Source of the DNA: Trichodesmium erythraeum IMS101
GTDB lineage: Bacteria > Cyanobacteriota > Cyanobacteriia > Cyanobacteriales > Microcoleaceae
Assembly: GCF_000014265.1 (NCBI RefSeq)
Contig: NC_008312.1
Location: 960,001-992,000 of the forward strand
Direction of reading: 5' to 3'
Length of the DNA stretch: 32,000 nt
In this document: positions 1,521 to 25,642 of the stretch, one piece after another
Layout: each line of letters begins with the position of its first letter
Numbering within the stretch: position 1 is the stretch's first letter
The notes under the pieces: model-generated
Told to the model about the DNA's origin: nothing
The model's database searches: none
Seen by the model: only the letters and a program-made list of their open reading frames with translations
Position numbers and translations under genes: made by a program

Positions 1521-3302
1521 ATGGCAACTATTGAATCTAAAGGCATGAATTTAGAAAAGTTATTTGATGAATTTTATGTTATTCCTGATTACCAGCGCGA
1601 ATATGTTTGGACACAAAAAGAAGTCAATGAATTTATTCAAGACATCTATGAAGAATTTTCTGAACAAACTCAAAACTCTTACCCTGAGTATTTTATTGGC
1701 AGTATAATTGTTTGTGGTCGCGGGGAAAAATTTTATGAAATAATTGATGGCCAGCAACGAATTACTACTGCTTACCTTGTACTATGTGCAATTCGGGATT
1801 ATCTATTAACTATTAATCCTAATGAACCTATTGAAGCATTAAAAAATAAGATTGCTGCTTTGTATACGGATAACTGGGGTAATGACCAGTTTAGACACAA
1901 AGTAGAACTACAATATCAGGAAAGTCGAGGAATACTAGAAAATATAGCTCTACAAGCAAGTGTAGAGACTCTTAGTCCAACTCGCTCTGTTAAAAATATT
2001 CAGAATGCTTATACTGAAATTAGAAGTTTTCTTTACCAATATTTTCAAGTAGATGAACTTGTTGTTTTTAATATCAAAAAGTTTTACGCATATTTTCTTA
2101 AAAATGTTAAGTTAATTCGAGTCAAAACAGCTAGTGTTTCTCATGCTTTGAAAATATATTCAACTCTAAATCATCGTGGTTTAGCCCTAGATGATATGGA
2201 TTTACTCAAAAATTTAATTTTTACTAAAGCTAAATCAACAGATTATGATCAAATCAAAGTAAAATGGAAAACAATGATAGACTTGCTTTATAATCATCAA
2301 GAAAAACCCATGCGTTTTTTGCGCTATTTTATATTAGCCAAATACGCAAAAGATGGGAACTATATTTTGGAAAAAGAAGTCTATGATTGGTTCCTAAATA
2401 ATGAACATATTTGTAGATATAAGACTGAACCGATTCAGTTTGTGAATAATTTACTGAGCTCGGCTCAAGCTTATGTAGCATTTTTAATAGGTAATAATGT
2501 TGATGGTACTGTTAATCGGTATTTGGTAAATATTAGAAATCTTAGTATAAATGTTAGGCAGCATTTAATATTACTTTTAGCTGTTGATAAGTTGCCTAAA
2601 GCTTGTTTTGTTGATCTCTGTAGACAGATAGAGAATTTATTATTTTTGGCAATGTTAACTAGCGATCGCCATAAAAAAGCATTTGATGGCATGATAATTA
2701 AGTGGGCAAGTGAGTTACGTACAATTAGTTCACAAGAGGATTATGATATTTTTATTGCTCAGGAAATTATTCCTAGCAAACAGGGAGTAGCTGATAAATT
2801 TGAAAATACGTTCTATCGACTGAATAAATTATCATTACAGCTATATCAAATTCGATATATTTTGGCAAAGATAACACAATATATAGATGAAATGGCCTGG
2901 GGAACTGTGGGAGGAATTGATGATTTAAGAAACTATGTTTTTAAATTAGAAGTAGAACAAATTTTATCAGAAAACCCTACAAAAGAAGTAGTTTTTGATT
3001 TTGATAAACCTACTGAAATAGTAAACTATAGTCAACGTTTAGGAAATATGACTTTGTTAGAAAGTTCTATTAAATCTGCTATTTTAAATGCTAGTTTTAC
3101 TGAGAAAAAATTAGGTTATACAAAATCTAGATTTTTGTTAACTAGAACTATTGCTGAAGAAATTTCGGTGGGAAACAATACAACTATTAATTTGGCTGTC
3201 AAGGATTTAAAGACATTTGAAAAATGGGATTCTCAAGCAATAGAAACTCGTCAAGAAATTTTAACTCAATTAGCTAAAAAAGTTTGGGATGTTCCTGAGT
3301 AA
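1521..3302 (+). CDS. DUF262 + DUF1524-like two-domain protein (GmrSD / type IV restriction family architecture); C-terminal nuclease motif looks degenerate
   Basis: N-terminal DUF262 hallmarks: IPDYQREYVW and IIDGQQRITT (DGQQR box). The C-terminal part has the DUF1524-like block LGNMTLLESSIKSAILNASFTEKK. VEQILSE sits where the family normally has (E/D)H(I/V)xP. Confidence 0.85.
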   Translation: MATIESKGMNLEKLFDEFYVIPDYQREYVWTQKEVNEFIQDIYEEFSEQTQNSYPEYFIGSIIVCGRGEKFYEIIDGQQRITTAYLVLCAIRDYLLTINPNEPIEALKNKIAALYTDNWGNDQFRHKVELQYQESRGILENIALQASVETLSPTRSVKNIQNAYTEIRSFLYQYFQVDELVVFNIKKFYAYFLKNVKLIRVKTASVSHALKIYSTLNHRGLALDDMDLLKNLIFTKAKSTDYDQIKVKWKTMIDLLYNHQEKPMRFLRYFILAKYAKDGNYILEKEVYDWFLNNEHICRYKTEPIQFVNNLLSSAQAYVAFLIGNNVDGTVNRYLVNIRNLSINVRQHLILLLAVDKLPKACFVDLCRQIENLLFLAMLTSDRHKKAFDGMIIKWASELRTISSQEDYDIFIAQEIIPSKQGVADKFENTFYRLNKLSLQLYQIRYILAKITQYIDEMAWGTVGGIDDLRNYVFKLEVEQILSENPTKEVVFDFDKPTEIVNYSQRLGNMTLLESSIKSAILNASFTEKKLGYTKSRFLLTRTIAEEISVGNNTTINLAVKDLKTFEKWDSQAIETRQEILTQLAKKVWDVPE

Positions 3303-3452
3303 TCTCCAACTTATTTTATGAAAAACTCTTTATAGTATGGTTTAATTAGCAAAGGTCTACTATGCTACTTTATCTAAAATCTACAAAATAACTAGGATAA
3401 AGGGCAAGATATGTATTCCCAAATTATTCTCTGGGAAAAAGCTAGTAATGGG

Positions 3453-3481
3453 TTCCCAAATTCCAGCAAAGCAACTATAAT
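3453..3481 (+). promoter_or_regulatory. Candidate sigma70-type promoter of the first FG-GAP/Calx-beta gene
   Basis: TTCCCA (3453-3458), 17-nt spacer, perfect TATAAT (3476-3481), about 40 nt upstream of the ATG at 3524. By-eye match only. Confidence 0.35.
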
Positions 3482-3523
3482 CTACATTAATTATCAATCA
3501 AACCTTAAACCCAATTATGGCAA

Positions 3524-6500
3524 ATGGACGAGGACTTCCAAAATAATACTCCATACTCTCCCGGGGAGAAAGACTGCCTCTTCCCACTAGAAATTAACTA
3601 TCATACTGGTCTAAACCTGGACCCTGAAGTCGCAAGTCCCCTCATAGAAACTGCCTGGTCTCAGGTCAAAGACGAATTAGTTGACTTTATCTTGCTCCCA
3701 GAGTTTAAGGCCAATATTGAAATAAGCTTTGATGAAAAAGTAAATGTGGATTTGGTCAAAGATAACATCAAAGATATTCTGACTGGGGAAAATTTGCCTG
3801 GTATTCAAGTCTTGTCCGCAGCAGACATGAATCCAGCGGTGGGTGCATATGACCCTTTGACAGGTGAGATTTATTTGGCTGATTCTTTATTAGGTGGAAC
3901 TGCTCAAGCAAAAGAGCAGGTCTTGTCAGATCTATCTGGTGTATTGTTGGAAGAGTTGGGGCATCATTTGGACCCCCAGTTGCCTGAGTCGGACTCTCCT
4001 GGAGATGAAGGTGAGTTATTCCGACGTTTGGTGAGAGGAGAGACGTTAGATGAGTCGGAGGTTTTACAACTTCGGGCTGAGGATGATTTTCGAGAAATTA
4101 GGGTATGGGGTGTTTTGGTTGAAGTTGAGGCTACTCAGAAGATAGATTTTGAGGAGTTTGGTCCATTTGAGGTAGATGAGAGACCTAACTGGGTAGCAGT
4201 AGGAGAATTTAATGGAGATGAATTTTTAGATTTGGCTGTGGCGAATGAGAACTCAGATAATGTATCAGTTTTACTAGGAAAAGCTTACAGTAGTTTTGGC
4301 CCAGCAACTAATTTTGATGTGGGAGATAGACCTTGGTCAGTAGGAGTAGGAGAATTTAATGGAGATGACTTTTCTGATTTGGTCGTAACAAGTGGCCCAT
4401 CAGGTCAAGTGTCTATTTTACTAGGAAAGGGTGACGGTGGCTTTGGTCCAGCAACTAATTTTGATGTGGGAGATTCACCTCGTTCTGTGGTAGTAGAAGA
4501 TTTGAATGGAGATGGCTTTTCTGATTTGGTTGTGGTTAACCCATGGTCAGATAAAGTATCGGTGTTATTAGGAGAAGGTAAGGGTAGTTTTGGTTTAGCT
4601 ACTGACTTTAATGTGGGAGATGAACCAGAGTCGTTAGTAGTAGGGGATTTTGATCGAGATAATATTCCTGATTTGGCTGTGGCGAATAAGTTTTCCGACA
4701 ATGTATCGATACTATTAGGAAGGGGTAATGGTAGTTTTGGGCGAGCTAATAATTTTGATGGGGGAGATGGACCGAGTTCTCTGGCAGTAGGAGAATTTAA
4801 TGGAGATAGTTTTTTAGATTTGGCTGTAGGAAACTATTTTTCAGACAATATATCAGTTTTACTAGGAGCTGGTGATGGTAGTTTTGGCTCAGCTACTAAT
4901 TTTAGGGCGGGAGATGAGCCGACTTCAATAGCGGCAGGAGAATTTAATGGAGATGGTTTTTCTGACCTAGTTGTGGCAAATGAGAATTCAGATGATATAT
5001 CAATATTATTAGGAAATGGAAATGGTGGTTTTGGTCCACCTACTAATTTTGACGTGGGAGATGAACCAGAGTCAGTGGCAATAGGAGATTTTAATGGAAA
5101 TGGAATTGCTGATTTGGCTGTGGCGAATGAGTTTTCAGGGAACGTATCTATTTTGATTAACCAAACTTCTATCACTACTGTCCCTAACATTACTATCTCT
5201 GATACGAAAATTAAGGAAGGCAACAGAAATAAAACGGCGGAATTTACAGTAATTTTAGACAATCCTAGTAATGAAATAGTTAAAGTTAACTATACTACAG
5301 CTAATCAATCGGCAAAAGTTAATCAAGACTATAGACTGGCCAAAGGGACTCTGATTTTCCAACCGGGAGAAACGCAACAAACTATAACGGTTCCTATTTT
5401 GGGAGATAGGCGTGACGAAGCTCAGGAAAAGTTTAAACTTAATCTCAGTAGCCCCCAAAATGCAAATCTTAAAGATGCACAAGCTATAGGAACTATTCTT
5501 GATAATGACCCACTTCCGAAAATATCTATCGGAGATGCTAAAGTGACTGAAGGAAATAGGGGTCAGAAAAAGATGACATTTGAAGTGAGGTTGAACAACC
5601 CTAGCGGTAAGACAGTAAGGGTTAATTATGGAACTGTTGAGGGCAGCGCTAAGTCTGGAGAAGATTATCAGGAGAAAAGAGGGGTTGTGAAATTTAAACC
5701 AGGGCAGAAGAAAAAGATAATTAATATTCCGATCTTTGGAGATACTGAGGATGAACAGAATGAGCAGTTTCAGGTAATTCTTAGTCGTGCTAGAAATGCT
5801 AAGTTCTCAGATAAGAAGGCAGTAGGTATGATTCGGGATAATGATGAAGCGGTTCCCAAGGATGAAATAATGCCCCAAATATCTATCGGAGATGCTAAAG
5901 TGACTGAAGGAAATAGGGGTCAGAAAAGGATGGAATTTGAAGTCGAGTTGGATAGTGCTAGTCAGAAAATGGTAAAAGTTAATTACTCTACAGTAGATGG
6001 CAGCGCTAAGTCTGGAGAAGATTATCGGAAGAAAAGTGGGGTGGTGACATTTAAGCCTGGGCAGACGAAAAAGATAGTTAATATTCCGATTTTGGGAGAT
6101 ACCCAGGATGAAGATAATGAGAAGTTTCAGGTACAACTCAGTGGTGCTAAAAATGCTAAGTTCTCAGATAGAAAGGGAGTAGGTATAATTGAAGATAATG
6201 ACAGACCAGTACCAGAGGTTTTTGAGGATGCTATTGATCTAGGAGTTCTTTCCCGGGAGCCTATTTCAGTCGTTGATAAGATTGGGTTTACTGTTGGCCC
6301 TGTGAATCGCAATACGGAGGATTATTTCCGCTTTGAGGTAGAGAAAGAGGGTTCGGTAAGTATTTTTGTGGATAGTTTTGTTCAAGATTTGGGCATTAAA
6401 TTATACGATGAAGAAGAAAGTCTACTTAATCAGTCAAATAAGGGAGGTGACTTAAAGGAAATTGAAACTATTTTAGAGTCTGGTGTTTATTATTTGAAAG

Positions 6501-6562
6501 TTGTCCCAGTGGGAGGTAGTAGAACTAAATATAATTTGAGTGTCAATATTGTTGAGTTTTAA
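3524..6562 (+). CDS. Large repeat protein: N-terminal conserved module, 7 FG-GAP/VCBS blades, 3 Calx-beta domains, PPC (pre-peptidase C-terminal) domain
   Basis: 1012-aa ORF. About nt 4166-5160: seven ~47-aa units with the FNGDGFSDLVV (DxNxDGxxD) signature. About nt 5170-6205: three ~110-aa units with the Calx-beta signature (..ISIGDAKVTEGNRG..F.V.L....V.V.Y.T.DGSAK.G.DY....G...F.PG...K...IPI.GD..DE.NE.F.V.L). About nt 6206-6559: DYFRFEV..G.V.I......DL.IKLYD......N......E.I...L..G.YYLKV, which is PPC-like. No signal peptide is evident. Confidence 0.9.
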   Translation: MDEDFQNNTPYSPGEKDCLFPLEINYHTGLNLDPEVASPLIETAWSQVKDELVDFILLPEFKANIEISFDEKVNVDLVKDNIKDILTGENLPGIQVLSAADMNPAVGAYDPLTGEIYLADSLLGGTAQAKEQVLSDLSGVLLEELGHHLDPQLPESDSPGDEGELFRRLVRGETLDESEVLQLRAEDDFREIRVWGVLVEVEATQKIDFEEFGPFEVDERPNWVAVGEFNGDEFLDLAVANENSDNVSVLLGKAYSSFGPATNFDVGDRPWSVGVGEFNGDDFSDLVVTSGPSGQVSILLGKGDGGFGPATNFDVGDSPRSVVVEDLNGDGFSDLVVVNPWSDKVSVLLGEGKGSFGLATDFNVGDEPESLVVGDFDRDNIPDLAVANKFSDNVSILLGRGNGSFGRANNFDGGDGPSSLAVGEFNGDSFLDLAVGNYFSDNISVLLGAGDGSFGSATNFRAGDEPTSIAAGEFNGDGFSDLVVANENSDDISILLGNGNGGFGPPTNFDVGDEPESVAIGDFNGNGIADLAVANEFSGNVSILINQTSITTVPNITISDTKIKEGNRNKTAEFTVILDNPSNEIVKVNYTTANQSAKVNQDYRLAKGTLIFQPGETQQTITVPILGDRRDEAQEKFKLNLSSPQNANLKDAQAIGTILDNDPLPKISIGDAKVTEGNRGQKKMTFEVRLNNPSGKTVRVNYGTVEGSAKSGEDYQEKRGVVKFKPGQKKKIINIPIFGDTEDEQNEQFQVILSRARNAKFSDKKAVGMIRDNDEAVPKDEIMPQISIGDAKVTEGNRGQKRMEFEVELDSASQKMVKVNYSTVDGSAKSGEDYRKKSGVVTFKPGQTKKIVNIPILGDTQDEDNEKFQVQLSGAKNAKFSDRKGVGIIEDNDRPVPEVFEDAIDLGVLSREPISVVDKIGFTVGPVNRNTEDYFRFEVEKEGSVSIFVDSFVQDLGIKLYDEEESLLNQSNKGGDLKEIETILESGVYYLKVVPVGGSRTKYNLSVNIVEF

Positions 6563-6889
6563 TTGGTGACTATATCAAATTTGCTAGAGTTTGAGTTTTT
6601 CAGTATTCAGGATGAAAAATTTATGGTCTATAATTCAGGACTAATGTAGAAAAACTATATATAGTCTATAAGTTTATTTTATATAAAAGTGGGTTTGCTT
6701 ATTTATAATTTTTGTCGATAAATACTTACGGTCAGAAGGTTTGGAATGTAAATATGCCAGATATAACTTACTACTTTATTTTAAAAATTACCCATTAAAA
6801 CATTTTCTTAAAATTATTTAATGATCATTATTTACTTTTTATAGTATAAGATTATAGTATAAGGTTCTAAATCAAAATCATGACAAGCT

Positions 6890-8791
6890 ATGAATTACGA
6901 AACAGAAAATTACGATCAAGATCAAGGTAGTCAAAACTATCAATATCAAAGTAGTGAAAACTATCAAGATCAAGGCAGTGACAACTATCAAACAAAGACA
7001 GTCAAAGAAAATCCAGTTGCCAAAAATGTGGCTAAAAAGGGTAGGCTTCGTGGTTTAACACAAGCCGATGTGGACAGAAAAGCTGGAAAGGCTAAACGCC
7101 GTAAAGATATGTCAAAAAAAATTGGTGGTTATGAAGAAAAGGATGCTGAAAGGCGAGGTGAGTTGAAAAAGGATTATGAAAACAATACAGATCAGATAAA
7201 GAAAAACGAAGCTGAACGTCAACAAATTGCTGAGGAAGACGCAATCAAACGTCAGGCTGACACGGAAAATAGGCGCAACAAAGTAGCAGCAGATCTGAAG
7301 GAAACCAACGAGGTACGTCTAGAAAATTCTGCTGAATGGGACAGCACGCGTCAAGCTGAATATGCTGCACTAGTTCAAGCTGTAGCTGACAAAATTGCTG
7401 TTTTCCAAGCAGAGATTCTTCAAACTAAAGCTGACACGAAAGATAGGCACGACAAAGTAGTAGCAGATATCAAGGAAACCAACGAGGTACGTCTAGAAAA
7501 TTCTGCTGAATGGGACAAGACACGTCAAGCTGAATATGCTGCACTAGTTCAAGCTGTAGCTGACAAAATTGCTGTTTTCCAAGCAGAGATTCTTCAAACT
7601 AAAGCTGACACGAAAGATAGGCACGACAAAGTAGTAGCAGATATCAAGGAAACCAACGAGGTACGTCTAGAAAATTCTGCTGAATGGGACAAGACACGTC
7701 AAGCTGAATATGCTGCACTAGTTCAAGCTGTAGCTGACAAAATTGCTGTTTTCCAAGCAGAGATTCTTCAAACTAAAGCTGACACGAAAGATAGGCACGA
7801 CAAAGTAGTAGCAGATATCAAGGAAACCAACGAGGTACGTCTAGAAAATTCTGCTGAATGGGACAGCACGCGTCAAGCTGAATATGCTGCACTAGTTCAA
7901 GCTGTAGCTGACAAAATTGCTGCTTTCCAAGCAGAGATTCTTCAAACTAAAGCTGACACGAAAGATAGGCACGACAAAGTAGTAGCAGATATCAAGGAAA
8001 CCAACGAGGTACGTCTAGAAAATTCTGCTGAATGGGACAAGACACGTCAAGCTGAATATGCTGCACTAGTTCAAGCTGTAGCTGACAAAATTGCTGTTTT
8101 CCAAGCAGAGATTCTTCAAACTAAAGCTGACACGAAAGATAGGCACGACAAAGTAGTAGCAGATATCAAGGAAACCAACGAGGTACGTCTAGAAAATTCT
8201 GCTGAATGGGACAAGACACGTCAAGCTGAATATGCTGCACTAGTTCAAGCTGTAGCTGACAAAATTGCTGCTTTCCAAGCAGAGATTCTTCAAACTAAAG
8301 CTGACACGAAAGATAGGCACGACAAAGTAGTAGCAGATATCAAGGAAACCAACGAGGTACGTCTAGAAAATTCTGCTGAATGGGACAAGACACGTCAAGC
8401 TGAATATGCTGCACTAGTTCAAACTGTAGCTGACAAAATTGCTGCTTTCCAAGCAGAGATTCTTCAAACTAAAGCTGACACGAAAGATAGGCACGACAAA
8501 GTAGTAGCAGATATCAAGGAAACCAACGAGGTACGTCTAGAAAATTCTGCTGAATGGGACAGCACGCGTCAAGCTGAATATGCTGCACTAGTTCAAGCTG
8601 TAGCTGACAAAATTGCTGGCTTCAAAGCAGAGATTCTTGAAAGCTTGAATACAGCTATAGAAAAGGCAACGCAAGAGGAAACTCAACGTAAACAAATTGC
8701 AGAAGAAGACAAGCAGGAAAGGGTTGATGCAAATAGTAAACGCCGTAAAGATAGGAATGATCAATTTGTAGATTTCATAGAAGTCTCTTAG
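6890..8791 (+). CDS. Highly charged tandem-repeat protein (predicted all-helical, coiled-coil-like), unknown function
   Basis: 633-aa ORF. Layout: Q/N/Y-rich octapeptide repeats at the N-terminus, a K/R/E-rich linker, 8 x 58-aa near-identical units, and a charged tail. QIAEEDA.. blocks flank the array on both sides. There is no TM segment or signal peptide, and no obvious SD sequence. The coding call rests on the long open frame kept across exact in-frame repeats. Confidence 0.8.
   Translation: MNYETENYDQDQGSQNYQYQSSENYQDQGSDNYQTKTVKENPVAKNVAKKGRLRGLTQADVDRKAGKAKRRKDMSKKIGGYEEKDAERRGELKKDYENNTDQIKKNEAERQQIAEEDAIKRQADTENRRNKVAADLKETNEVRLENSAEWDSTRQAEYAALVQAVADKIAVFQAEILQTKADTKDRHDKVVADIKETNEVRLENSAEWDKTRQAEYAALVQAVADKIAVFQAEILQTKADTKDRHDKVVADIKETNEVRLENSAEWDKTRQAEYAALVQAVADKIAVFQAEILQTKADTKDRHDKVVADIKETNEVRLENSAEWDSTRQAEYAALVQAVADKIAAFQAEILQTKADTKDRHDKVVADIKETNEVRLENSAEWDKTRQAEYAALVQAVADKIAVFQAEILQTKADTKDRHDKVVADIKETNEVRLENSAEWDKTRQAEYAALVQAVADKIAAFQAEILQTKADTKDRHDKVVADIKETNEVRLENSAEWDKTRQAEYAALVQTVADKIAAFQAEILQTKADTKDRHDKVVADIKETNEVRLENSAEWDSTRQAEYAALVQAVADKIAGFKAEILESLNTAIEKATQEETQRKQIAEEDKQERVDANSKRRKDRNDQFVDFIEVS
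6902..6997 (+). repeat. 4 x 24-bp in-frame tandem repeat encoding the octapeptide xSxNYQxQ
   Basis: TENYDQDQ / GSQNYQYQ / SSENYQDQ / GSDNYQTK, read codon by codon from 6902. Confidence 0.85.
7256..8647 (+). repeat. 8 x 174-bp (58-aa) near-perfect tandem repeat inside CDS 6890-8791
   Basis: Unit starts are at 7256, 7430, 7604, 7778, 7952, 8126, 8300 and 8474. Units 2, 3 and 5 read identical. Internal units differ only at three places: aagacac/agcacgc (K/S), gtt/gct (V/A) and gct/act (A/T). The first and last units diverge at their outer edges. Confidence 0.97.
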
Positions 8792-8836
8792 AAGGTTTAG
8801 GCCATTCTCTGGGATTTATCGTTAGATGAATAAGTA

Positions 8837-8871
8837 GTTAATTAAGTAGGTTTGATGCCTACTTAATTAAC
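8837..8871 (+). terminator. Perfect 14-bp stem hairpin 46 nt downstream of the repeat-protein stop (putative terminator)
   Basis: GTTAATTAAGTAGG-tttgatg-CCTACTTAATTAAC. There is no immediately adjacent U-tract; a T-rich stretch follows about 15-25 nt later. Confidence 0.5.
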
Positions 8872-9190
8872 ATAGATAATCTGGATTTTTCTGATTTTTA
8901 ATATATCTTTTCAAAGTAGAAGTTTTGACTCCCCTAAAAGAAGCAATAAGAGAATAGCTATTCTATAAACATTTTTTCAGTAAATAGGGTTGAATAACAT
9001 CAGATAGCTTTTGGTAGAATGAAGCGCCCTACTTTTAATTTTTAACGGATTTTTTACTTTTTGATCTACTTACATCGTGCTCAGTAAAACCGAATCAGGA
9101 CGAATGGCCAGAAAGCCGCTACTGTAGAAAGTTGCCGTAAATTCTAAGTTCTAAGCTTTGACTTTTGAATTATATTGTTTGACTTTTAAT

Positions 9191-9255: not shown

Positions 9256-12200
9256 ATGACTGAACCCTTTGAAGAAAATAATTCATCGGAGCCTGAGTTT
9301 CCGGATGACCCATTCCCAAGTGTCCACTATCTCCCTGGGGCTGACTCGAACCCTGAGGTTACAGACCCGATGATACAAGGTGCCTGGGGTGAGGTTCGTG
9401 ACGAATTGGCTGATTTTATCTTGGCCCCGGAGTTCGATGACTATATTAAAACGGCTTTTGGTGAAACTGTGGACCCGGAGCTGGCAAAGGAGCAGATCAA
9501 GGATGTTTTGACTGGGGAAAATTTGCCCGAGGTTATTATGTTGCCGGCGGCGGATATGGAGCCGGCGGTGGGTGCCTATGATCCTTTGACTGGTTCAATT
9601 TATTTGGCTGATTCTTTATTGCCTGATACTGATGGGGTTTTGGTGGATGTGCTGTTGGAGGAGTTGGGGCATTTTTTGGACTCTCAGTTGTCTGAGTCGG
9701 ACTCCCCTGGAGATGAGGGTGAGTTATTGGCTGCTTTGGTGAGGGGTGAGGAGTTGACTCAGTTTCAGGTGATGATGCTTCGGGGTCAGGATGATCGGGT
9801 AGATATTTGGGTCGGGGGTGTTGAGGTTGAGGTTGAGGCTAGTGAAAAGGTTGATTTTGAGAAGGCTCGTAATTTTAAGGTGGGAGACAGACCTTGGTCA
9901 GTAGCAGCAGGAGATTTTAATGGAGATGGCATTCCTGATCTGGCTGTGGCGAACGTTGGTTCAGACAACGTATCAGTGTTATTAGGAAAAGGTGACGGTA
10001 GTTTTGGTTCAGCTACTAATTTTCCGGTGGGAGACGGACCTGCGTCAGTAGCAGCAGAAGATTTAAATGGAGATGGCATTCCTGATCTGGCTGTGGCGAA
10101 TATTGACTCAGACAACGTATCAGTGTTATCAGGAAAAGGTGACGGTAGTTTTGGTTCAGCTACTAATTTTCCGGTGGGAGACGGACCAGAGTCAGTAGCA
10201 GTAGGAGATTTTAATGGAGATGGCATTCCTGATCTGGCTGTGGCGAACTGGTTGTCAGACAACGTATCAGTGTTATTAGGAAAAGGTGACGGTAGTTTTG
10301 GTTCAGCTACTAATTTTCCGGTGGGAGACAGACCTGCGTCAGTAGCAGCAGAAGATTTAAATGGAGATGGCATTCCTGATCTGGCTGTGGCGAACTGGTT
10401 GTCAGACAACGTATCAGTGTTATCAGGAAAAGGTGACGGTAGTTTTGGTTCAGCTACTAATTTTCCGGTGGGAGATCAACCTTTGTCAGTAGCAGTAGGA
10501 GATTTTAATGGAGATGGCATTCCTGATCTGGCTGTGGCGAACAGATCTTCAGACAACGTATCAGTGTTATCAGGAAAAGGTGACGGTAGTTTTGGTTCAG
10601 CTACTAATTTTCCGGTGGGAGACTTTCCTAGCTCAGTAGCAGCAGAAGATTTAAATGGAGATGGCATTCCTGATCTGGCTGTGGCGAACTGGTTGTCATA
10701 CAACGTATCAGTGTTATCAGGAAAAGGTGACGGTAGTTTTGGTTCAGCTACTAATTTTCCGGTGGGAGATCAACCTTTGTCAGTAGCAGCAGAAGATTTA
10801 AATGGAGACGGCATTCCTGATCTGGCTGTGGCGAACAGGGGGGATAACAACGTATCCATCCTCATCAACAAAACCCCCATAACCATCATCCCCAACATCA
10901 CCATCTCCGACACCAAGGTCACCGAAGGCAACACAAATAAAACCGCCAAATTCACCGTCACCCTAGACAACCCCACAACCACCACAGTCAAAGTCAACTA
11001 CACCACAGCCAACCAAACCGCCCAAGTCAACCAAGACTACAAACTCACCAAAGGCACCCTCACCTTCCGACCAGGAGAAACGAACAAAAACATCACAGTT
11101 CCCATCTTGGGAGATAACCGAGACGAACCCCAGGAAAAATTCCGAGTCGCTCTGAGCCGCCCCCAAAATGCCAACATCAAAGATGGGAGAGCTACAGGCA
11201 CCATCGTTGATAACGACCCAGTTCCCCAAATATCCATCGGCGATGCCAAAATTACGGAAGGAAACAGAGGTCAGAAAAACATAGAATTTGAAGTCAAATT
11301 AAACAACCCCAGCGGGAAAACAGTGAGAGTAAATTATGGAACCCAAGAGGGCAGCGCCAAGTCAGGAAAAGATTTTCGAAATAAAAGGGGAGTCCTGACA
11401 TTCCAACCAGGGCAGACCAAAAAAATAGTGAACATTCCCATTTTAGGAGATCGGGTTGATGAAAATAACGAGGAGTTTCAAGTCAAACTCAGCCGTGCCA
11501 GAAATGGAAATTTGTCAGATAAAACAGCGGTCGGCAGAATTATTGATAACGACGAAACAATACCCCAAATATCCATCAGGGATGCCAAAGTGACGGAAGG
11601 AAACAGGGGTAAGAAACAGATGAAGTTTGAAGTCGAGCTCAACAACCCGAGCACGAAAACAGTGAGAGTAAATTACGCCACAGTAGATGGCAGCGCCAAG
11701 TCAGGAAAAGATTTTCAAAATAAAAGGGGAGTGGTGACATTCCAACCAGGGCAGAGGAAAAAGATAGTGAATATTCCCATTTTGGGAGATCGGGTTGATG
11801 AAAATAACGAGCAGTTTCAAGTCAAACTCAGCGGTGCCAGAAATGGTAAGTTGTCAGATAAAACAGCGGTCGGCAGAATTATTGATAACGACGAAGGGGT
11901 TCCCAAAGATCAGATAACTCCCCAAATATCCATCAGGGATGCCAAAATTACTGAAGGAAACCAGGGAGAGAAAAACATGAAGTTTGAGGTCAAGTTAGAT
12001 AATAGTAGCAGTGAAGTAGTGAAAGTTAATTATGAAACTGTTGACGGTAGCGCGAAGTCAGGAAAAGATTATTTGAAGAAAAAGGGAGTCCTGAAATTCC
12101 AACCAGGGGAGACGAAAAAGACAGTAAATGTTCCTATTTTGGGAGATACTGTTGATGAAAAGGATGAGAAATTTCAGGTGAAACTCAGCGGCGCTAAAAA

Positions 12201-12612
12201 TGGTAAGTTATCAGATGCAAAAGCAGTGGGTATTATTCGGGATGACGAAAAACCAGTACCAGATGAATTCAAAAATGCTGTAGATATAGGAATTCTGGAG
12301 CTAGAGCAAATTACCAAGGTTGATGATATTGGTTTCTCCGAAGGACAACAGCGAAATACAGTAGATCATTATCGTTTTGAGGTCAAAAAAGAAGGTTCAG
12401 TGAATATTATTGTAGATGGCTTCTTTCAAGACTTAGGAATTAAATTGTATGATGATGATGGCAGTCTACTCAACCAGTCAAACGAGGAGGGCAATATCAC
12501 CAAAGAGAAAATTCAAACTATTTTAGATCCTGGTTTTTATTATTTAGAAGTTTTTCCTGTAGGAGCGGGTGCAACTGACTATAGGTTAATTGTTAATATT
12601 GTTGAATTCTAA
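9256..12612 (+). CDS. Paralog of 3524-6562: N-terminal conserved module, 7 FG-GAP/VCBS blades, 4 Calx-beta domains, PPC domain
   Basis: 1118-aa ORF, collinear with the first paralog. Shared blocks: AVGAYDPLTG.IYLADSLL, LLEELGH.LD, SDSPGDEGEL, and the C-terminus ..VNIVEF. It is 106 aa longer, which equals one extra Calx-beta unit. Confidence 0.9.
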   Translation: MTEPFEENNSSEPEFPDDPFPSVHYLPGADSNPEVTDPMIQGAWGEVRDELADFILAPEFDDYIKTAFGETVDPELAKEQIKDVLTGENLPEVIMLPAADMEPAVGAYDPLTGSIYLADSLLPDTDGVLVDVLLEELGHFLDSQLSESDSPGDEGELLAALVRGEELTQFQVMMLRGQDDRVDIWVGGVEVEVEASEKVDFEKARNFKVGDRPWSVAAGDFNGDGIPDLAVANVGSDNVSVLLGKGDGSFGSATNFPVGDGPASVAAEDLNGDGIPDLAVANIDSDNVSVLSGKGDGSFGSATNFPVGDGPESVAVGDFNGDGIPDLAVANWLSDNVSVLLGKGDGSFGSATNFPVGDRPASVAAEDLNGDGIPDLAVANWLSDNVSVLSGKGDGSFGSATNFPVGDQPLSVAVGDFNGDGIPDLAVANRSSDNVSVLSGKGDGSFGSATNFPVGDFPSSVAAEDLNGDGIPDLAVANWLSYNVSVLSGKGDGSFGSATNFPVGDQPLSVAAEDLNGDGIPDLAVANRGDNNVSILINKTPITIIPNITISDTKVTEGNTNKTAKFTVTLDNPTTTTVKVNYTTANQTAQVNQDYKLTKGTLTFRPGETNKNITVPILGDNRDEPQEKFRVALSRPQNANIKDGRATGTIVDNDPVPQISIGDAKITEGNRGQKNIEFEVKLNNPSGKTVRVNYGTQEGSAKSGKDFRNKRGVLTFQPGQTKKIVNIPILGDRVDENNEEFQVKLSRARNGNLSDKTAVGRIIDNDETIPQISIRDAKVTEGNRGKKQMKFEVELNNPSTKTVRVNYATVDGSAKSGKDFQNKRGVVTFQPGQRKKIVNIPILGDRVDENNEQFQVKLSGARNGKLSDKTAVGRIIDNDEGVPKDQITPQISIRDAKITEGNQGEKNMKFEVKLDNSSSEVVKVNYETVDGSAKSGKDYLKKKGVLKFQPGETKKTVNVPILGDTVDEKDEKFQVKLSGAKNGKLSDAKAVGIIRDDEKPVPDEFKNAVDIGILELEQITKVDDIGFSEGQQRNTVDHYRFEVKKEGSVNIIVDGFFQDLGIKLYDDDGSLLNQSNEEGNITKEKIQTILDPGFYYLEVFPVGAGATDYRLIVNIVEF
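9871..10875 (+). repeat. 7 x 147-bp (49-aa) highly similar tandem repeat encoding the FG-GAP blades of the second paralog
   Basis: Unit starts are at 9871, 10018, 10165, 10312, 10459, 10606 and 10753. Long runs are identical between units (e.g. aatggagatggcattcctgatctggctgtggcgaac, gtatcagtgttatcaggaaaaggtgacggtagttttggttcagctactaattttccggtgggaga). Confidence 0.95.
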
Positions 12613-14681: not shown

Positions 14682-15308
14682 CACAGTTTTGAGCAGATGA
14701 AATTTTCATCTATTGACCCTTAACTTTTAACTCTTAACTTTTGAGTTTTGAGAGCTGAGATAATTTCATGAAATTACAGCTCATGTGGGAAAAATGATGT
14801 TGTGGGGGGCATCTTGCACCCGTGGGCGTACCTCATAAACCTGAAATATGCTGTAATTTAGCGCCACAGTTTTAAGCCAAGAAAATATTTATCCACAATT
14901 TTTAAGTTTTGAGAGCTGAAATAATTTCCGGAAATTAATTTAGTGTGACAGTTTTAAGTCAATAAAATCTTCATCCATAACTTTTTACTTTTAACTTTTA
15001 CAGCATATTTCGGGAAAATGATGTACAGAGTAAATAGTGAAAATAATTTAGTAGCTGTACTTGATAACAACAAAAAGCGCTGTAGCTTTTAACTTTTAAC
15101 TTTTAACCTTTAACTTTTAACCTTTAACTTTTAACTTTTAACCTTTAACCTTTAACTTTTAACTTTTAACTTTTAACTTTTAACTTTTAACCTTTAACCT
15201 TTAACTTTTAACTTTTAACTTTTAACTTTTAACTTTTAATTTTTAACTTTTAATTTTTAACTTTTAACTTTTAACTTTTGAGTAATGGGAAATAATTTCC
15301 TGAAATTA
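14682..15308. repeat. Three copies of a modular intergenic repeat, each ending in a 16-nt palindrome TAATTTC-NN-GAAATTA
   Basis: Module A: cacagttttgagcagatgaaattttcatc (14682), cacagttttaagccaagaaaatatttatcc (14866), gacagttttaagtcaataaaatcttcatcc (14947). Module B is a run of AACTTTT-type heptamers of variable length. Module C: gttttgagagctgaGataatttcATgaaatta (14745-14776), gttttgagagctgaAataatttcCGgaaatta (14906-14937), cttttgagtaatgggaaataatttcCTgaaatta (15275-15308). Confidence 0.8.
15086..15279. repeat. Heptanucleotide tandem array (about 27-28 copies of AACTTTT with AACCTTT and AATTTTT variants), STRR-like
   Basis: Period 7 read directly: cttttaa cttttaa cttttaa cctttaa ... There is no ORF. 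It lies in the 1.1-kb spacer between the chelatase gene and ORF 15384. Confidence 0.95.
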
Positions 15309-15383: not shown

Positions 15384-15956
15384 ATGACCATAGTAATTTG
15401 CCCAGGAATACATGAGCCAAAGCTAACCGATCAATTCTTGGAAGGTTTATCTATTAATTGGCAGAACCTCTCTCATTCTGGAAAGCTCTTAGTATGCCCA
15501 ACTCAAGACTATACCCCCTACTCTACCATTGACATATCAAAATTTTTATGGAGCTCAAAATTGATAAGGACAAATACACCATTACTATTCATTGCCTTTA
15601 GTGCAGGAGTAGTAGGAGCAACAGGAGCCGCTTGGACTTGGCAACTAGGAGGGGGACAAGTAAAAGCTGTTATAGCTATTGATGGATGGGGAATGCCTGT
15701 CAAGGGAAATTTTCCCATCTATAAAGTCAGTCACGACCATTTCACCCATTGGAGTTGGGGAATTTTCAGTAGTGGGGACGAAAACTTTTATGCCTATCCA
15801 TCTGTAGAACATTTAGAAATATGGCGATCGCCCCAAACAACTAGAGGTTGGTGGCTACATCAAAACATTATGGAAGTCAAAACAGCAACACCTGCAACAG
15901 CCAAAGAATTTATCATAAAAATATTAGAAAACCATGAAGAATTAAGCAGTATTTAA
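15384..15956 (+). CDS. Conserved-looking hypothetical protein, possibly alpha/beta-hydrolase-like
   Basis: 190-aa ORF. LLFIAFSAGVVGATGAA resembles a nucleophile-elbow (xSxG) context. It contains a HIP1 site (15824-15831). No family was recognised with certainty. Confidence 0.65.
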   Translation: MTIVICPGIHEPKLTDQFLEGLSINWQNLSHSGKLLVCPTQDYTPYSTIDISKFLWSSKLIRTNTPLLFIAFSAGVVGATGAAWTWQLGGGQVKAVIAIDGWGMPVKGNFPIYKVSHDHFTHWSWGIFSSGDENFYAYPSVEHLEIWRSPQTTRGWWLHQNIMEVKTATPATAKEFIIKILENHEELSSI

Positions 15957-17383: not shown

Positions 17384-17941
17384 ATTAAAATTTAAGAGTC
17401 AAACTGAGTCAGGCAAAGGATATAACCTAGAAGACATAAAGGAACAAATATCAAGCCTCATTAATGAGCTAGAATCAAATGCTTTTCTCAGGTTAATTTA
17501 TTTCAATTTCTAACTGTTCGTTTGATTCCAAAAGGCTTTTGGGATTAATTAAATATCCGGCTAATTTTTTATGTTTTCAAAACACAGGACTAATGGATCT
17601 GGGTGACATTCAAAGCCATAAACTGGAGCATCATAAGCAGGATCTAGTGTCATTGAGTCAATGCATCACTAGCTCCGAGCTCTAAGATAGTTTTGACTTT
17701 AGCCTGAGAAATGTGTGTGATAATCATAGAATGCAAATAAATACCAGAGTTTCCAGTTGACATCAATGAACCTCCTAATTACTCATAGTTTAATTGGCTC
17801 AAGTTTCAGGACAAAACCCCCGTCTTTTAAAAGGGTAATTCCATCTAATTTTAGATATTAATTTAACACCGACATTCCGCAGATATTCATACATCTTTAT
17901 GTAGATTGACATTTTCTAAGTAGATACGATAAAATATAGTA

Positions 17942-18120
17942 TTTAAAGAAGTAAAAACTTGAGTAAGTATTTAGACTCAATAAAAAAAAACCTCAAGCTG
18001 TTATTGTAGATAACAAGGTGGAGAATAAACAAGAGTAAAAAATATCAATAGAAGTGACTAATATAAACCACTTAGGTAATGTAGTTAGCGTAATATTTAT
18101 GCTAACTACATTTTCTTTTT
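17942..18120 (+). ncRNA. Candidate ~180-nt small RNA defined by a near-consensus promoter and an intrinsic terminator
   Basis: TTGACA (17906-17911), 18-nt spacer, TAAAAT (17930-17935). Terminator: 12-bp stem AATGTAGTTAGC (18078-18089) / GCTAACTACATT (18101-18112), followed by TTCTTTTT. There is no ATG-initiated ORF of note between them. An internal hairpin TTGAGT-N10-ACTCAA lies near 17959-17980. The ends are predicted, not mapped. Confidence 0.35.
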
Positions 18121-18903
18121 GTCTAAAGTCCAAATATATCCGAAAAACAATTAGTTATAGTATTTACAATTCAAGATAACGGTACATTATATATAGAATA
18201 CCTGCCTAAGTCCTAATAAATCTAATATAAATCTAATATAAAAGTTAATATTTGGTTCCAAAATTAATATTAGAAATCTATTAATTTTATAGATTGCTAT
18301 TAGGCAAAATTCAACTTATATTAGTATCTGTTGATAATATATATTGATCAGGTGTATTTACCTTAAAATAGCTTGAGCTGACTTAGGATTTTCTGGCCTG
18401 CTCTTGTCTTGCTTACTTGATACAAACAGGGATCACTAGACATAGTTGAACCTATAACATTAGATGCTTATAAACCCTTTATCAAAGCTAGTATTGATAT
18501 TGCCATGAGTTCCAATAATCAGGACTTAGGCACGGGAACTGCATCCTATGAGAGCGAATATGATTTGCAACTATGGTCTTGAGATTACCTATCCAGTAAG
18601 GGCGATTTGAAACTCTACTCATTTAGCAGCATAGCCTCAATTACACCTGATCGTTTATCTAGTGGAAGTTGAACTATGAAGTTCTAAAAACGAGTTTCTT
18701 AGACAAAACTTCAGGGAACACTTGAGGATATAGTTTATCTAGTAACAGTCAGGCTACTTCACACTTATGCCAGTCAGGAATGGTTTTGTTGCTTTTATTG
18801 TGATTGGTTTTACTGCAATAAAAATCCATTCCTGGCTTATTTCTAGTAATTCTCTAAACTGCAACACAAGCAAAGGAGTAAAAAAAAGGAGTAAAAAAAA
18901 ATA

Positions 18904-19263
18904 GTGAAACGAACTTTCTGCAGAAGCTTGCCAGCTTTTTTGATGACAACTGTGTTGATGCTAATAATTGTGTTATAGCCCGCCATTACAGCAAATGGAG
19001 CCATAGCTTAGACTCAAAAGAGTAATTATGCTCTCGATCAAACCGGAGCAAGCTTGGTACATTGCGATCTACACTTTGTAGACAAAGAGGATAAGTTCAT
19101 TGATATTAATGCAGATACTGAAGAGGCAAAAAGACCCATATGGACTGCATATACAAGGGATAATTTCAATCAGGAAAGTATCGAGGATCTAAAACAATAT
19201 TCTTTTATACATATCTCAGGAATATTGTTTCAGATAGGTTCCGCCAAGGCAAATTCACCCTAA
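18904..19263 (+). pseudogene. Possible small secreted-protein gene interrupted by two in-frame TAG codons
   Basis: GTG at 18904 with AGGAG upstream opens a signal-peptide-like VKRTFCRSLPAFLMTTVLMLIIVL. The frame then reads TAG (18976-18978), PAITANGAIA, TAG (19009-19011), and runs in the same frame into listed ORF 19054-19263. Confidence 0.3.
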
Positions 19264-20267
19264 TTTTTTTTCGGAAGTGATTTAGACTTAAAAGCTTATC
19301 CCACAAACTTTTTAACTTGCTATTCTCCTTGGGTACTCTATAAACACCAAGGTAATTTTTTGATGGGCCCTCGTTTCCGGATTTTTCTCACTCGTAAGCA
19401 AGAAAAAAAACTACTGAAACTTAGAACTGAGGATTTACCACAGAAAGTTAAAGACCGACCAGAGGTCATCAGCTTTCTGGGAATGATGACAATTCAATAC
19501 TTTCCGGATCCAGGCATTACCGCTATACATAGTGCAAAAAATTGTTATTTTTCCGATGAAGCCACTATAATTAGTTTAGTGACCTGAATCCTGACTTGAC
19601 TTTTTGTACAATGCCTAGTAATTGAATAAATAAAAGCAGTAATAAATTTTCGTAGAAATTAAACCGTACCACCACCCCACCTGAAAACTGACACCTACCA
19701 CTTACTAGGTTTTTAGGCGTCTTGTCACCCTTTCAGTGTTTTTACCTTGAATTAACCGTTTTTCTGACATACATAATAGGTTTTAGCTATTTTTATTTCC
19801 CTTGGTATTTCCCTTGTTAATCATGGTTTGGTGCCGTTTTCGGTATCAAAAATCTTAAATCTCAAATAGCTGCAATGCTTACTCTGCAAACGTTTCATTA
19901 TAATCATAAATAATACCAAGTTCGCCAAATGTGAGAAGGTATTTTTTCAAGTTACAGCCTTTACTCAATGTCCTGTTAGGGAATGGGATAAGCCTGCTTT
20001 TATATCCGGATATCACCTGAGCACAATTAATTTACTACATATACAAGACTACCGGAATAAACGAGTAGAGAATAAATCAAGAATAAAAAAAATTAAATAC
20101 TTTTATAGAAATAATATCAAAGAATCCGGAGTTTTAAATTATATCATAGGAAAATAGAATATTAACCGACTAACAATGGAAATGCTTACCAAAGTAAAAA
20201 ATTATCAATTTACAATTTCAAATAGCAACCATTAAGGGCAAAATCAAATAAAATTTATATAAAATCT

Positions 20268-24445: not shown

Positions 24446-25642
24446 ATGACCAGTTATGAAAATAGCAACAATAAACTTTTTGATGTGTTTCTCAATGACA
24501 TACCCGATAAATTTACAGGAAAGTTAGAAGTAAAAAGTTCTCGCCAAAGTTGGACAATATTTTTGTGTATCGGTCATCTAGCTTGGGCAATAGGTGGCAA
24601 ACATTATAATCGGAGATTTTACAAAATATGGCATCAATTTTGTTCAAATGTTCCTCTAGAAAAGATTAAATTAGGAAAACAAGATACTCTTTTCTGTGAT
24701 TACTATCATATCATGTCTGTTTTATCGAGGCGAAAAATATTAACTATCCCTCAAATAAAAGCAGTAGTATTGGGAAACTTAGAAGAAGTTTTATTTGATA
24801 TTTTACAGGAGGAATCACAAGAAAAATTAACATACGATGTATCCAATTCTGGATTCGACAAAACTTCGACCATAATTTCTTCAATTGTTAGATTAGAAAC
24901 TGTTATTTCTCGAGTTAATAAGTTGTGGAAAAATTGGCAAAATTCTAATTTAGCTGCATATTCTCCTAACTTAATTCCTACAATTATCAACTATGAAAAG
25001 TTACAAAAAATAGCCAAAAATAACACTTATAAGACAATTACTAAGTTAGTTGATGGCAAAAAATCACTGCGAGAAACTGCTGTCTTGTTCAAAAAAGATG
25101 TGCGGGAGCTAACTTTGTTTTTAATTCCTTATGTTAAGAATAAATTAATTCACTTCAAAGAAGGAGCAGACAAAAAAAATCTAGAGAGAAGTACTCAAGA
25201 TGTGCATAAAAAAACAATACCCAAGCAATCTCAAGCATTAATTATTTGTGTAGATGATAGTAAAGAAACTTGTTATATCTTAGAGAAAATAATTAAAAAA
25301 ACGGGTTATAAATTTATGGGAATTCAAGATTCTATTAAAGCATTATTTATGATTATTGAATCTAAACCGGATCTAATTTTCTTAGATTTAATGATGCCAA
25401 TTGCCAATGGTTATGAAATTTGTACTCAACTGCGAAGAGTGCCTATGTTTGAGAATACACCAATAATTATATTAACTGGGAGTGATGGAGTTGTAGACCG
25501 AGTTCGAGCGAAAATGGTAGGGGCTACAGGGTATTTGACTAAACCTATTGAACCGAAAAAAGTTTTAGCTTTAGTCAAGAATTATTTACAAAATCCTCGC
25601 TCTCCTGATACTCAAATTAAATCTGATGAATCAGATTTATAA
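24446..25642 (+). CDS. PatA-subfamily response regulator (N-terminal PATAN/DUF4388-like domain + C-terminal CheY-like receiver)
   Basis: The C-terminal REC domain is complete: acidic pair ICVDDS, phospho-acceptor context DLIFLDLMMP, ILTGS, and YLTKP lysine. The N-terminal G.LEV.S....W.IFL..GHLAWA.GG.H..RRF is typical of PATAN domains. There is no output or HTH domain, and no kinase in the window. Confidence 0.88.
   Translation: MTSYENSNNKLFDVFLNDIPDKFTGKLEVKSSRQSWTIFLCIGHLAWAIGGKHYNRRFYKIWHQFCSNVPLEKIKLGKQDTLFCDYYHIMSVLSRRKILTIPQIKAVVLGNLEEVLFDILQEESQEKLTYDVSNSGFDKTSTIISSIVRLETVISRVNKLWKNWQNSNLAAYSPNLIPTIINYEKLQKIAKNNTYKTITKLVDGKKSLRETAVLFKKDVRELTLFLIPYVKNKLIHFKEGADKKNLERSTQDVHKKTIPKQSQALIICVDDSKETCYILEKIIKKTGYKFMGIQDSIKALFMIIESKPDLIFLDLMMPIANGYEICTQLRRVPMFENTPIIILTGSDGVVDRVRAKMVGATGYLTKPIEPKKVLALVKNYLQNPRSPDTQIKSDESDL

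Follow-up and report, generated by a model that had tools for sequence, protein, structure and literature searches.

An in-frame tandem array of 174-bp (58-aa) units was found in Tery_0600 of Trichodesmium erythraeum IMS101, within a 32,000-nt stretch of the chromosome (genome positions 960001-992000, hereafter the window). The open reading frame (ORF) at 6890-8791 of the window was matched to this gene by exact-sequence look-up (ABG50044.1 / WP_011610438.1 / Q118N0, "hypothetical protein"), and the window was placed by the offset from the ORF at 966890-968791 on the plus strand in PMC12090762 Table S1. Genetically, the array is a textbook in-frame coding variable number tandem repeat (VNTR) that evolves by unequal recombination. 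The best explanation of the whole, which we hold with slightly more confidence than doubt, is that Tery_0600 encodes an abundant, genus-restricted, self-associating helical rod whose array has grown by unequal recombination from a two-unit ancestor. The gene and the strength of its expression had been reported before; in the sources searched no record was found of its repeat anatomy, its 2-, 8- and 12-unit variants, its hybrid inner units, its replacement-rich divergence or its non-heptad periodicity.

Tandem Repeats Finder (TRF) placed the array at 7256-8642 with a period of 174, 8.0 copies, 97% matches, 0% indels and a score of 2606. With the register cut from 7256, units begin at 7256, 7430, 7604, 7778, 7952, 8126, 8300 and 8474. 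Units 2, 3 and 5 have the same sequence over all 174 nt, and the six inner units, which are 0-4 nt apart, vary solely at nt 89/90/93 (K or S, AAGACA or AGCACG), nt 146 (V or A) and nt 124 (A or T), the Ser variant being present in units 1, 4 and 8. The first unit is 10 nt off the inner consensus, all of the differences lying in the 5' third and at the K/S site, and the last is 12 nt off, with all differences in the 3' end and at the K/S site. An original prediction, made from the sequence alone, had described eight near-identical in-frame units at 7256-8647, the identity of units 2, 3 and 5, three variable places and the recurrence of the S variant, and all of this was reproduced by TRF and the register cut. 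Framing blocks of the type QIAEEDA.KRQ / QIAEEDKQER, which it had also pointed out, are likewise present on both sides of the array (QQIAEEDAIKRQ and KQIAEEDKQERV, with 21/36 nt in common). No stop codon occurs across the array in the coding frame, compared with 15-48 in the other five frames, and the 464 aa that it encodes are free of Pro and Cys and include one Gly only, which lies in the last unit.

Outside the array, a Q/N/Y-rich stretch (residues 1-36) is followed by a basic one (residues 37-122, pI 9.8), and the flank motifs are mirrored around the repeats in the order KRRKD...QIAEED / array / QIAEED...KRRKD. A second, smaller in-frame array encodes the Q/N/Y-rich N-terminus and is also variable in copy number, a wild cDNA allele (P0086/L012) being shorter there by 48 nt (16 aa).

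The unit types, designated A to F, offer an indication of how the inner part of the array arose. Differences between units B and A are confined to nt 10-42 and 89-93, and those between units B and F to nt 89-93 and 146-174. By sequence comparison unit B is an exact hybrid of the 5' part of the last unit and the 3' part of the first, and would therefore be the product expected from one unequal crossover in a two-unit allele. In the scheme proposed here, a first unequal crossover in a two-unit ancestor would have joined the 5' part of unit 2 to the 3' part of unit 1, taking the array from 2 to 3 units. The hybrid unit would then have been amplified, and as a last step a 4-unit (696-bp) block would have been gained or lost, with array length changing by unequal homologous recombination between in-register units. 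All the marks of an in-frame coding VNTR were found, namely a unit of 174 = 3 x 58, uniform inner and divergent edge units, length variants of whole units, and hybrid units.

Length variants were found among proteins clustered at 90% identity, which were 633 aa (IMS101), 865 aa (P0005) and, for many metagenome entries, 285 aa long, with two partials from the metagenome-assembled genome (MAG) ALOHA_ZT_67. The full-length variants are exact whole multiples of 58 aa apart, corresponding to 2, 8 and 12 units, and the copy-number polymorphism that had been predicted does exist. Two units were found in one cDNA contig and in ten metagenome contigs, which stem from various samples and assemblers and represent six distinct alleles; an 858-nt two-unit gene was identical in five contigs from five samples and three assemblers. 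The expansion in IMS101 appears to be very recent, because in their flanking DNA the two-unit contigs are 99-99.5% identical to IMS101. Together with the exact hybrid inner units, these two-unit populations bear out the recent origin that the original prediction had suggested.

The 12-unit record (P0005, UPI00003CA001) reads ABBCBBBCBDEF where IMS101 reads ABBCBDEF, with the Ser variant in units 1, 4, 8 and 12. The sole difference is one 4-unit block, in line with the higher-order duplication pattern at which the recurrence of the S variant had hinted. Its flanks are 100% identical to those of IMS101, including Ser75, where all wild alleles have Ala, and because of this IMS101 or a near-clone is very probably the source of the record. 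It is possible, then, that the true or only unit count of IMS101 is not 8, and that the chromosome, or copies of it, carry 12 units or a mixture, in which case the array would be real and the number 8 a finishing decision. The pattern of the 865-aa record (ABBC/BBBC/BDEF, with one extra block between identical flanks) is in keeping with this, and the longest exact repeat of 347 nt in the IMS101 gene, along with a 696-bp block repeated near-perfectly, would have made placement of Sanger reads difficult. Trichodesmium is reportedly highly polyploid, which would allow mixed unit numbers. The finished chromosome record and RefSeq, however, both give 633 aa, and we regard a count other than 8 as a serious but rather improbable alternative.

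Assembly failure at the array, which had been anticipated as a likely trouble site, is documented. In MAG ALOHA_ZT_67 (L004, T. erythraeum-like) a 100-N gap lies inside the array (L004 5901-6000), and the assembly of isolate 21-75 stops inside unit 1. At L004 5820-5900 the N-flank joins an inner-type unit (ADTKDRHDKVV...) in place of the usual first-unit type (ADTENRRNKVA...), which reflects an array built differently in this MAG or else an artefact of scaffolding beside the gap.

These failures, and the fact that every two-unit sequence stems from short-read assemblies, raise the question of whether the two-unit alleles are themselves short-read collapses. Wild arrays would then also be long, there would be no lineage-specific expansion, and the unit 2 variants VVADI, VAAEL, VEAEL and VEADL could be different internal units. 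We consider this unlikely. The longest exact internal repeat in the two-unit genes is 46-78 nt, less than the k of 119-141 that the MEGAHIT-style contig names give, so that two units are resolvable and extra units would branch. The two-unit contigs break in the FG-GAP repeats of the neighbouring genes yet run through Tery_0600, the same 858-nt gene was recovered regardless of sample and assembler, and the cDNA contig likewise has two units. Because the internal repeats are shorter than k, the contigs read through and the cDNA agrees, the two-unit versions look like real alleles, not collapses.

Tery_0600 is a real and very highly expressed gene. Its transcription start site (TSS), at genome position 966856 (window 6856), was published among those of the 20 most abundant primary transcripts, and the gene was described as "kinesin-like ... 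in a cassette of integrin genes" (PMC4143802). This TSS gives a 5' untranslated region of 34 nt and falls inside a TTATAGTATAAG x2 element that yields two -10-like hexamers, TATAGT and TATAAG. A 955-nt wild cDNA contig (L012; JGI 3300018998, Ga0193444_10061923) holds the complete two-unit ORF. It begins with an adaptor-like ACATGGG, which looks like a template-switch adaptor remnant, followed by a match to the window from 6859, 3 nt off the published TSS. Its 3' end is a non-templated A15, which begins 13 nt downstream of a hairpin located beyond the stop codon and suggests polyadenylation of this bacterial mRNA. None of 200 shuffles (0/200) folded as stably as the hairpin, which was matched in a terminator scan too and is a probable terminator or 3'-end stabiliser. 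On the basis of the published TSS, the ends of the cDNA contig and the hairpin, we assign to Tery_0600 a short mRNA of its own, running from 6856 to about 8884.

By RNA-seq, Tery_0600 was at 2000-4400 counts per million (CPM), compared with about 400-900 for Tery_0599 and 100-200 for Tery_0601, and high iron addition made its transcript 1.8-fold lower (log2 fold change -0.85, adjusted p 0.0014; PMC12090762 Table S1). The protein was measured at 27-89 fmol/ug in label-free proteomics of IMS101, with significant differences in two pairwise treatment tables (PMC4642986). In another dataset its spectral counts were 269-361 in P-replete and 463-610 in P-deficient cells (means 304 and 549), RbcL having 375-583 in the same runs (PMC6411698). 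A field metaproteome supplement contained no Tery_0600 entry. Looking for the protein in proteomic data had been proposed along with the original prediction, and the protein was detected in both PMC4642986 and PMC6411698; transcript evidence (a strong TSS, RNA-seq and a cDNA contig) and peptide evidence by mass spectrometry (MS) are thus both strong, and the outcome that was to have refuted the prediction did not occur.

On the sequence searches made, Tery_0600 is an orphan restricted to Trichodesmium and belongs to no described family. A HMMER search of 1.84 billion representative proteins gave eight matches, among them the Trichodesmium allele P0086. One match, P0087 (731 aa, E = 8e-16), is an unrelated repeat protein whose own 58-aa period lets a weak per-unit score add up. 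P0092 (1134 aa, E = 5e-4), with a period of about 57-58 aa by eye, is also an unrelated repeat protein with a repeat-driven match. Coincidence of period can therefore yield significant-looking phmmer matches. P0089 (41 aa), an apparent diverged homologue, was rejected on its source, Logan contigs without any cytosine, that is, bisulfite-converted reads of the Tery_0600 locus. One of these (L013) contains no cytosine over its full length and has a GC skew of 1.000, and L014-L016 encode the same 41-aa product (L013-L016 are Logan contigs of SRR10203746, SRR10203754, SRR4250011 and SRR10203738). Gene calling on bisulfite contigs thus seeds protein databases with fake diverged 'homologues' of this kind. 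Other matches (P0088, P0090 and P0091) were about 2,060-2,090 aa long with 16-20% identity, the verdict of artefact resting on P0087, P0092 and P0089.

Matches of the 8-unit protein to Pfam, NCBIfam and PHROG families (WRW, PepSY_like, REX1B, HNH and others) were sums of eight weak matches, with 0 individually significant stretches. As a control the two-unit allele was rescanned, and the matches vanished or fell below cut-offs; for Pfam, hmmscan with a limit of E = 10 covered a 2-unit fragment and the N-flank as well as the allele itself. The label 'kinesin-like protein' (PMC4143802), for which the Pfam scans showed no motor domain, and 'kinetoplast-associated protein-like' (KEGG best hit in PMC12090762 Table S1) were set aside as artefacts of composition and repeats. 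Repeated minus-strand promoter-like and terminator-like matches inside the array were also dismissed, as one chance match copied eight times. A PDB sequence search returned no relative, and tblastn against phages and plasmids returned nothing. Neither a peptide pattern nor an invariant 21-nt word from the unit found anything in genome, metagenome and viral collections, the source genome evidently being unreadable there. When the full protein was run against 5.8 billion clusters in a word-indexed search, nothing came up, its own cluster included, low-complexity words having probably saturated the candidates. The earlier statement that no characterised family was recognisable is upheld by the Pfam, NCBIfam, PHROG, PDB and HMMER searches, and no Pfam, NCBIfam, PHROG or PDB relative survived the two-unit control.

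Rates of change were compared between IMS101 and two wild contigs, using the Tery_0600 flanks together with the first and last units. For Tery_0600, nonsynonymous divergence per site (pN) was 0.015-0.028 and its ratio to synonymous divergence (pN/pS) was 1.6-3.2. For Tery_0598 and Tery_0599, pN was 0.000-0.002 and pN/pS was about 0.1-0.5, apart from one pair at 0 and another in which it was undefined, so that nonsynonymous change in Tery_0600 is about 10 times faster than in its neighbours. The upstream intergenic region was identical at 327/327 nt in L001 and L002, and downstream 2/464 positions differed. Over seven distinct sequences, 26 variable codons were nonsynonymous and 2 synonymous (Fisher p = 8e-5 against the neighbours), and total divergence of Tery_0600 was 2.6%, compared with 0.74% at neutral-proxy sites (p = 7e-4). 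The non-repeated N-flank alone had 9 replacement changes and 1 silent change. Variants E/K, K/S and T/I recur at the matching position in both units, suggesting exchange between units. Although 28 codons vary and several indels occur, each a multiple of a unit, none of the 12 independent sequences has lost the reading frame. Such accelerated, replacement-dominated evolution is compatible with diversifying selection, without being proof of it.

High pN/pS would be explained by neutrality if Tery_0600 were a young, essentially unconstrained ORF (de novo or junk) with no specific function. An orphan confined to one genus, of low-complexity, repetitive composition and with a pN/pS of about 1.6-3.2 that is not significantly above 1, fits that description. 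The frame, however, is kept in 12/12 sequences, the promoter region is perfectly conserved, abundance at the level of RbcL would be costly if the protein were useless, and divergence exceeds the local neutral proxy. A functionless ORF is for these reasons considered very unlikely.

The product of Tery_0600 is acidic (array pI 4.85) and free of Cys. No signal peptide or transmembrane segment was found in it (maximum 19-aa Kyte-Doolittle window 1.31; mean of the first 30 aa -2.3), and because of this the protein is probably cytoplasmic. AlphaFold2 (AF2) modelled the 8-unit protein with residues 1-56 disordered and, by DSSP, helix from residue 58 to about 630, at a predicted local distance difference test score (pLDDT) of 58 and a predicted template modelling score (pTM) of 0.19; the original prediction had judged the unit helical from its spaced hydrophobics, and the modelling agrees. 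The 2-unit allele was predicted to form helices at 58-201 and 206-282, with a break at LENS in unit 2 (pLDDT 76, 82 residues >90, pTM 0.26). Residues 1-52/56 had pLDDT <50. The large hydrophobics of each unit follow one dominant harmonic, 58/16 = 3.625 residues/turn (resultant 0.51, shuffle p = 0.004; p = 0.016 allowing for three harmonics), and both half-units are in phase.

The protein would accordingly have four parts, a disordered Q/N/Y-rich head of about 56 aa, a basic helical segment, a rod of n x 58 aa, and a short helical tail that mirrors the motifs of the N-flank. Given the single 3.625-residue harmonic and the phase of the half-units, each module would make 16 turns of amphipathic helix, about 8.7 nm if continuous, and its hydrophobic stripe would stay in register from module to module. 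The stripe would drive self-association, as a hairpin or as an antiparallel or parallel helical bundle, and not as a classical left-handed coiled coil. It is speculation that an antiparallel arrangement would bring the mirrored flank motifs together. With its length set by module number, the protein would act as a fibrous scaffold or spacer, the array measuring, as a continuous helix, about 17, 70 and 104 nm for 2, 8 and 12 units. Oligomerisation, scaffold role and cellular location are what we infer from these features, and a cytoplasmic structural scaffold or spacer is our best guess.

Several observations weigh against the self-associating rod described above. The AF2 monomers have low pTM (0.19 and 0.26), the 8-unit model has aperiodic helix breaks, and Foldseek with the better AF2 model found no analogue. 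A heptad (3.5) periodicity is unsupported (resultant 0.27, shuffle p = 0.23). The MS counts are inflated and overstate molar abundance, as tryptic peptides of the module occur up to 8 times per molecule. There are two unit numbers on record for IMS101-type flanks (8 and 12), and the excess of pN/pS over 1 falls short of significance when judged by counts alone (binomial p = 0.06), which is compatible with relaxed constraint. The coordinates of the features discussed here are collected in Table 1.

Table 1. Features of the Tery_0600 locus, in window coordinates.
Feature	Position	Strand	Description
Core promoter region, tandem TTATAGTATAAG(A/G) x2	6839..6863	+	TRF; promoter-like match 6831-6858
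Monocistronic Tery_0600 mRNA	6856..8884	+	Published TSS; 3' end inferred by aligning the wild allele
Coding sequence of Tery_0600	6890..8791	+	633 aa, 72.0 kDa, pI 5.0; protein seen by MS
Smaller in-frame array, 24 bp / 8 aa, NYQxQxSx	6915..6991	+	3.2 copies (TRF); encodes Q/N/Y-rich N-terminus
Basic helical N-flank	7058..7255	+	Residues 57-122; contains KAKRRKD, ends in QQIAEEDAIKRQ
Framing block QQIAEEDAIKRQ	7220-7255	+	End of N-flank
Main array, 8 x 174 bp (58 aa)	7256..8647	+	Unit types A B B C B D E F; 464 aa encoded
Helical C-flank	8648..8788	+	47 aa; KQIAEEDKQERV, then SKRRKDR, end FVDFIEVS
Framing block KQIAEEDKQERV	8690-8725	+	In C-flank
Hairpin, 15-bp stem	8837..8871	+	46 nt past stop codon; RNA fold -22.4 kcal/mol, z = -5.1
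Upstream neighbour Tery_0599	3524..6562	+	FG-GAP/VCBS x6 + Calx-beta x3 + PPC (Pfam)
Downstream neighbour Tery_0601	9256..12612	+	Paralogue of Tery_0599; FG-GAP x7 + Calx-beta x4 + PPC (Pfam)

Both neighbours of Tery_0600, Tery_0599 and Tery_0601, are annotated in the look-up as "Na-Ca exchanger/integrin-beta4", and Tery_0598 as DUF262/GmrSD. The PPC domain of the two paralogues is at their C-terminus. The adjacency of Tery_0599 and Tery_0600 is kept, with L001, L002, L004, L006-L011 and L017 sharing gene order, and the start of Tery_0601 comes after Tery_0600 in all contigs. Inspection of the N-termini revealed no signal peptide in Tery_0599 or Tery_0601. Each of these genes holds tandem arrays of its own, of 147 bp (FG-GAP) and roughly 340-357 bp (Calx-beta), which are far more homogenised in Tery_0601 than in Tery_0599 (91% and 71%), and short-read contigs consistently break inside these arrays. 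The GmrSD-type restriction endonuclease gene (DUF262 + DUF1524) at 1521-3302 is near-invariant in wild contigs (pN 0-0.0014).

Further along the window, a non-coding heptanucleotide array, CTTTTAA x 27.7 (93% matches), occupies 15086-15279, upstream of an unannotated 190-aa ORF (15384-15956) with no Pfam match. At 17384-20267 there are about 2.9 kb with no ORF of at least 80 aa and no Rfam match, typical of the large non-coding fraction of the genome. Beside this stretch lie a gene for a 970-aa TPR and CHAT-domain protein (21336-24248, minus strand) and then one for a PatA-like response regulator (24446-25642). Scanning the 32-kb window for Rfam families and tRNAs gave no matches.

The company of Tery_0599 and Tery_0601 allows a different role to be envisaged, that of an exported surface fibril comparable to streptococcal M or alpha-C proteins. 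Such a fibril would take part, with the adhesin-like FG-GAP/Calx-beta neighbours, in adhesion of colonies or to particles, diversifying selection by phages or grazers would act on it, and its repeat number would serve as a contingency mechanism. The conserved place between two FG-GAP/Calx-beta/PPC genes, the nonsynonymous-rich changes and variable repeat number, and an acidic, Cys-free protein could all be read in this way, and since the neighbours also have no signal peptides a common non-Sec route is conceivable. Tery_0600, however, lacks a signal peptide, a lipobox, an anchor, a transmembrane segment and any RTX/GGxGxD motif. With a TSS and a terminator of its own, it is expressed at about 5-20 times the level of its neighbours, and among the genes of the 32-kb window none for secretion was seen. 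Features of an RTX or type I secretion substrate were looked for and none were found, there being no GGxGxD repeats (one Gly in 464 aa) and no HemolysinCabind match in Pfam. We regard export as distinctly unlikely.

Another possible role is that of an organelle-coating scaffold or molecular ruler, like GvpC on gas vesicles, with amphipathic modules arranged along a periodic surface and module number tuning mechanical strength. The architecture is the same (hydrophilic, helical and abundant, with tandem modules between unique ends and length variants produced by recombination), and spectral counts rise under P deficiency (304 to 549 on average). Set against this, no match to Gas_vesicle_C (PF01304) or any gvp family was found in Pfam scans, the period is 58 aa and not 33, and no gvp family occurs among the scanned ORFs of at least 80 aa in the 32-kb window. 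Literature searches found no gvpC or coiled-coil link for this Trichodesmium protein. We consider a GvpC-like function very unlikely. For both it and the exported fibril the membership tests came out negative, apart from the identical in-frame repeats of variable copy number that Tery_0600 has in common with Gram-positive surface proteins.

In its most ambitious form, the rod, as one of the most abundant Trichodesmium proteins, might be a genus-specific structural 'ruler', its length tuned by module number and its surface under diversifying selection, which coats or spaces a Trichodesmium-specific structure, for example in a GvpC-like manner on unusually pressure-resistant gas vesicles or as a scaffold with the FG-GAP/Calx-beta proteins. 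We offer this as a long shot. Were it true, the expansion from 2 to 8 or 12 units in IMS101 would count as adaptive and possibly as associated with culture.

A large share of the new nitrogen in tropical oceans comes from Trichodesmium, which, to our knowledge, is not genetically manipulable. Its highly expressed orphan genes are for this reason the chief unexplored side of its biology. Tery_0600 is one whose level shifts in both phosphorus (about 304 to 549 counts) and iron experiments, and whose amino-acid replacement is faster than everything around the locus. The array in the model strain is four- to six-fold longer than in the sampled wild populations. For this reason repeated peptides and multi-mapping reads inflate proteomic and transcriptomic estimates for IMS101, a strain that may misrepresent the natural protein. 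The locus could also serve as a convenient strain or lineage marker, sizeable by polymerase chain reaction, and recombination between the numerous chromosome copies in a reportedly polyploid cyanobacterium could be tested on it.

Among known systems, GvpC is a hydrophilic helical protein of near-identical tandem modules, with natural length variants that arise by repeat recombination. Tery_0600 is also hydrophilic, helical, modular between unique ends, abundant and length-variable, but it has a 58-aa period where GvpC has 33, shows no sequence match and lies outside a gvp cluster. With the streptococcal M and alpha-C/Rib proteins it shares helical or fibrous identical in-frame repeats, a copy number set by recombination and replacement-rich change, whereas it has no signal peptide, LPXTG or other anchor and no homology to them, and its host is a cyanobacterium with a Gram-negative envelope. 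The kinesin and kinetoplast-associated proteins after which it has been labelled have in common with it only a charged, helical, repetitive composition. Like crescentin and the cyanobacterial coiled-coil-rich proteins, it is predicted to have a long, uninterrupted helix with a hydrophobic seam and a non-helical or charged head and tail, but its periodicity is 3.625 and not the heptad 3.5, and there is no homology. The resemblance of Tery_0600 to GvpC, to M-like proteins and to bacterial coiled-coil-rich proteins is thus one of architecture only.

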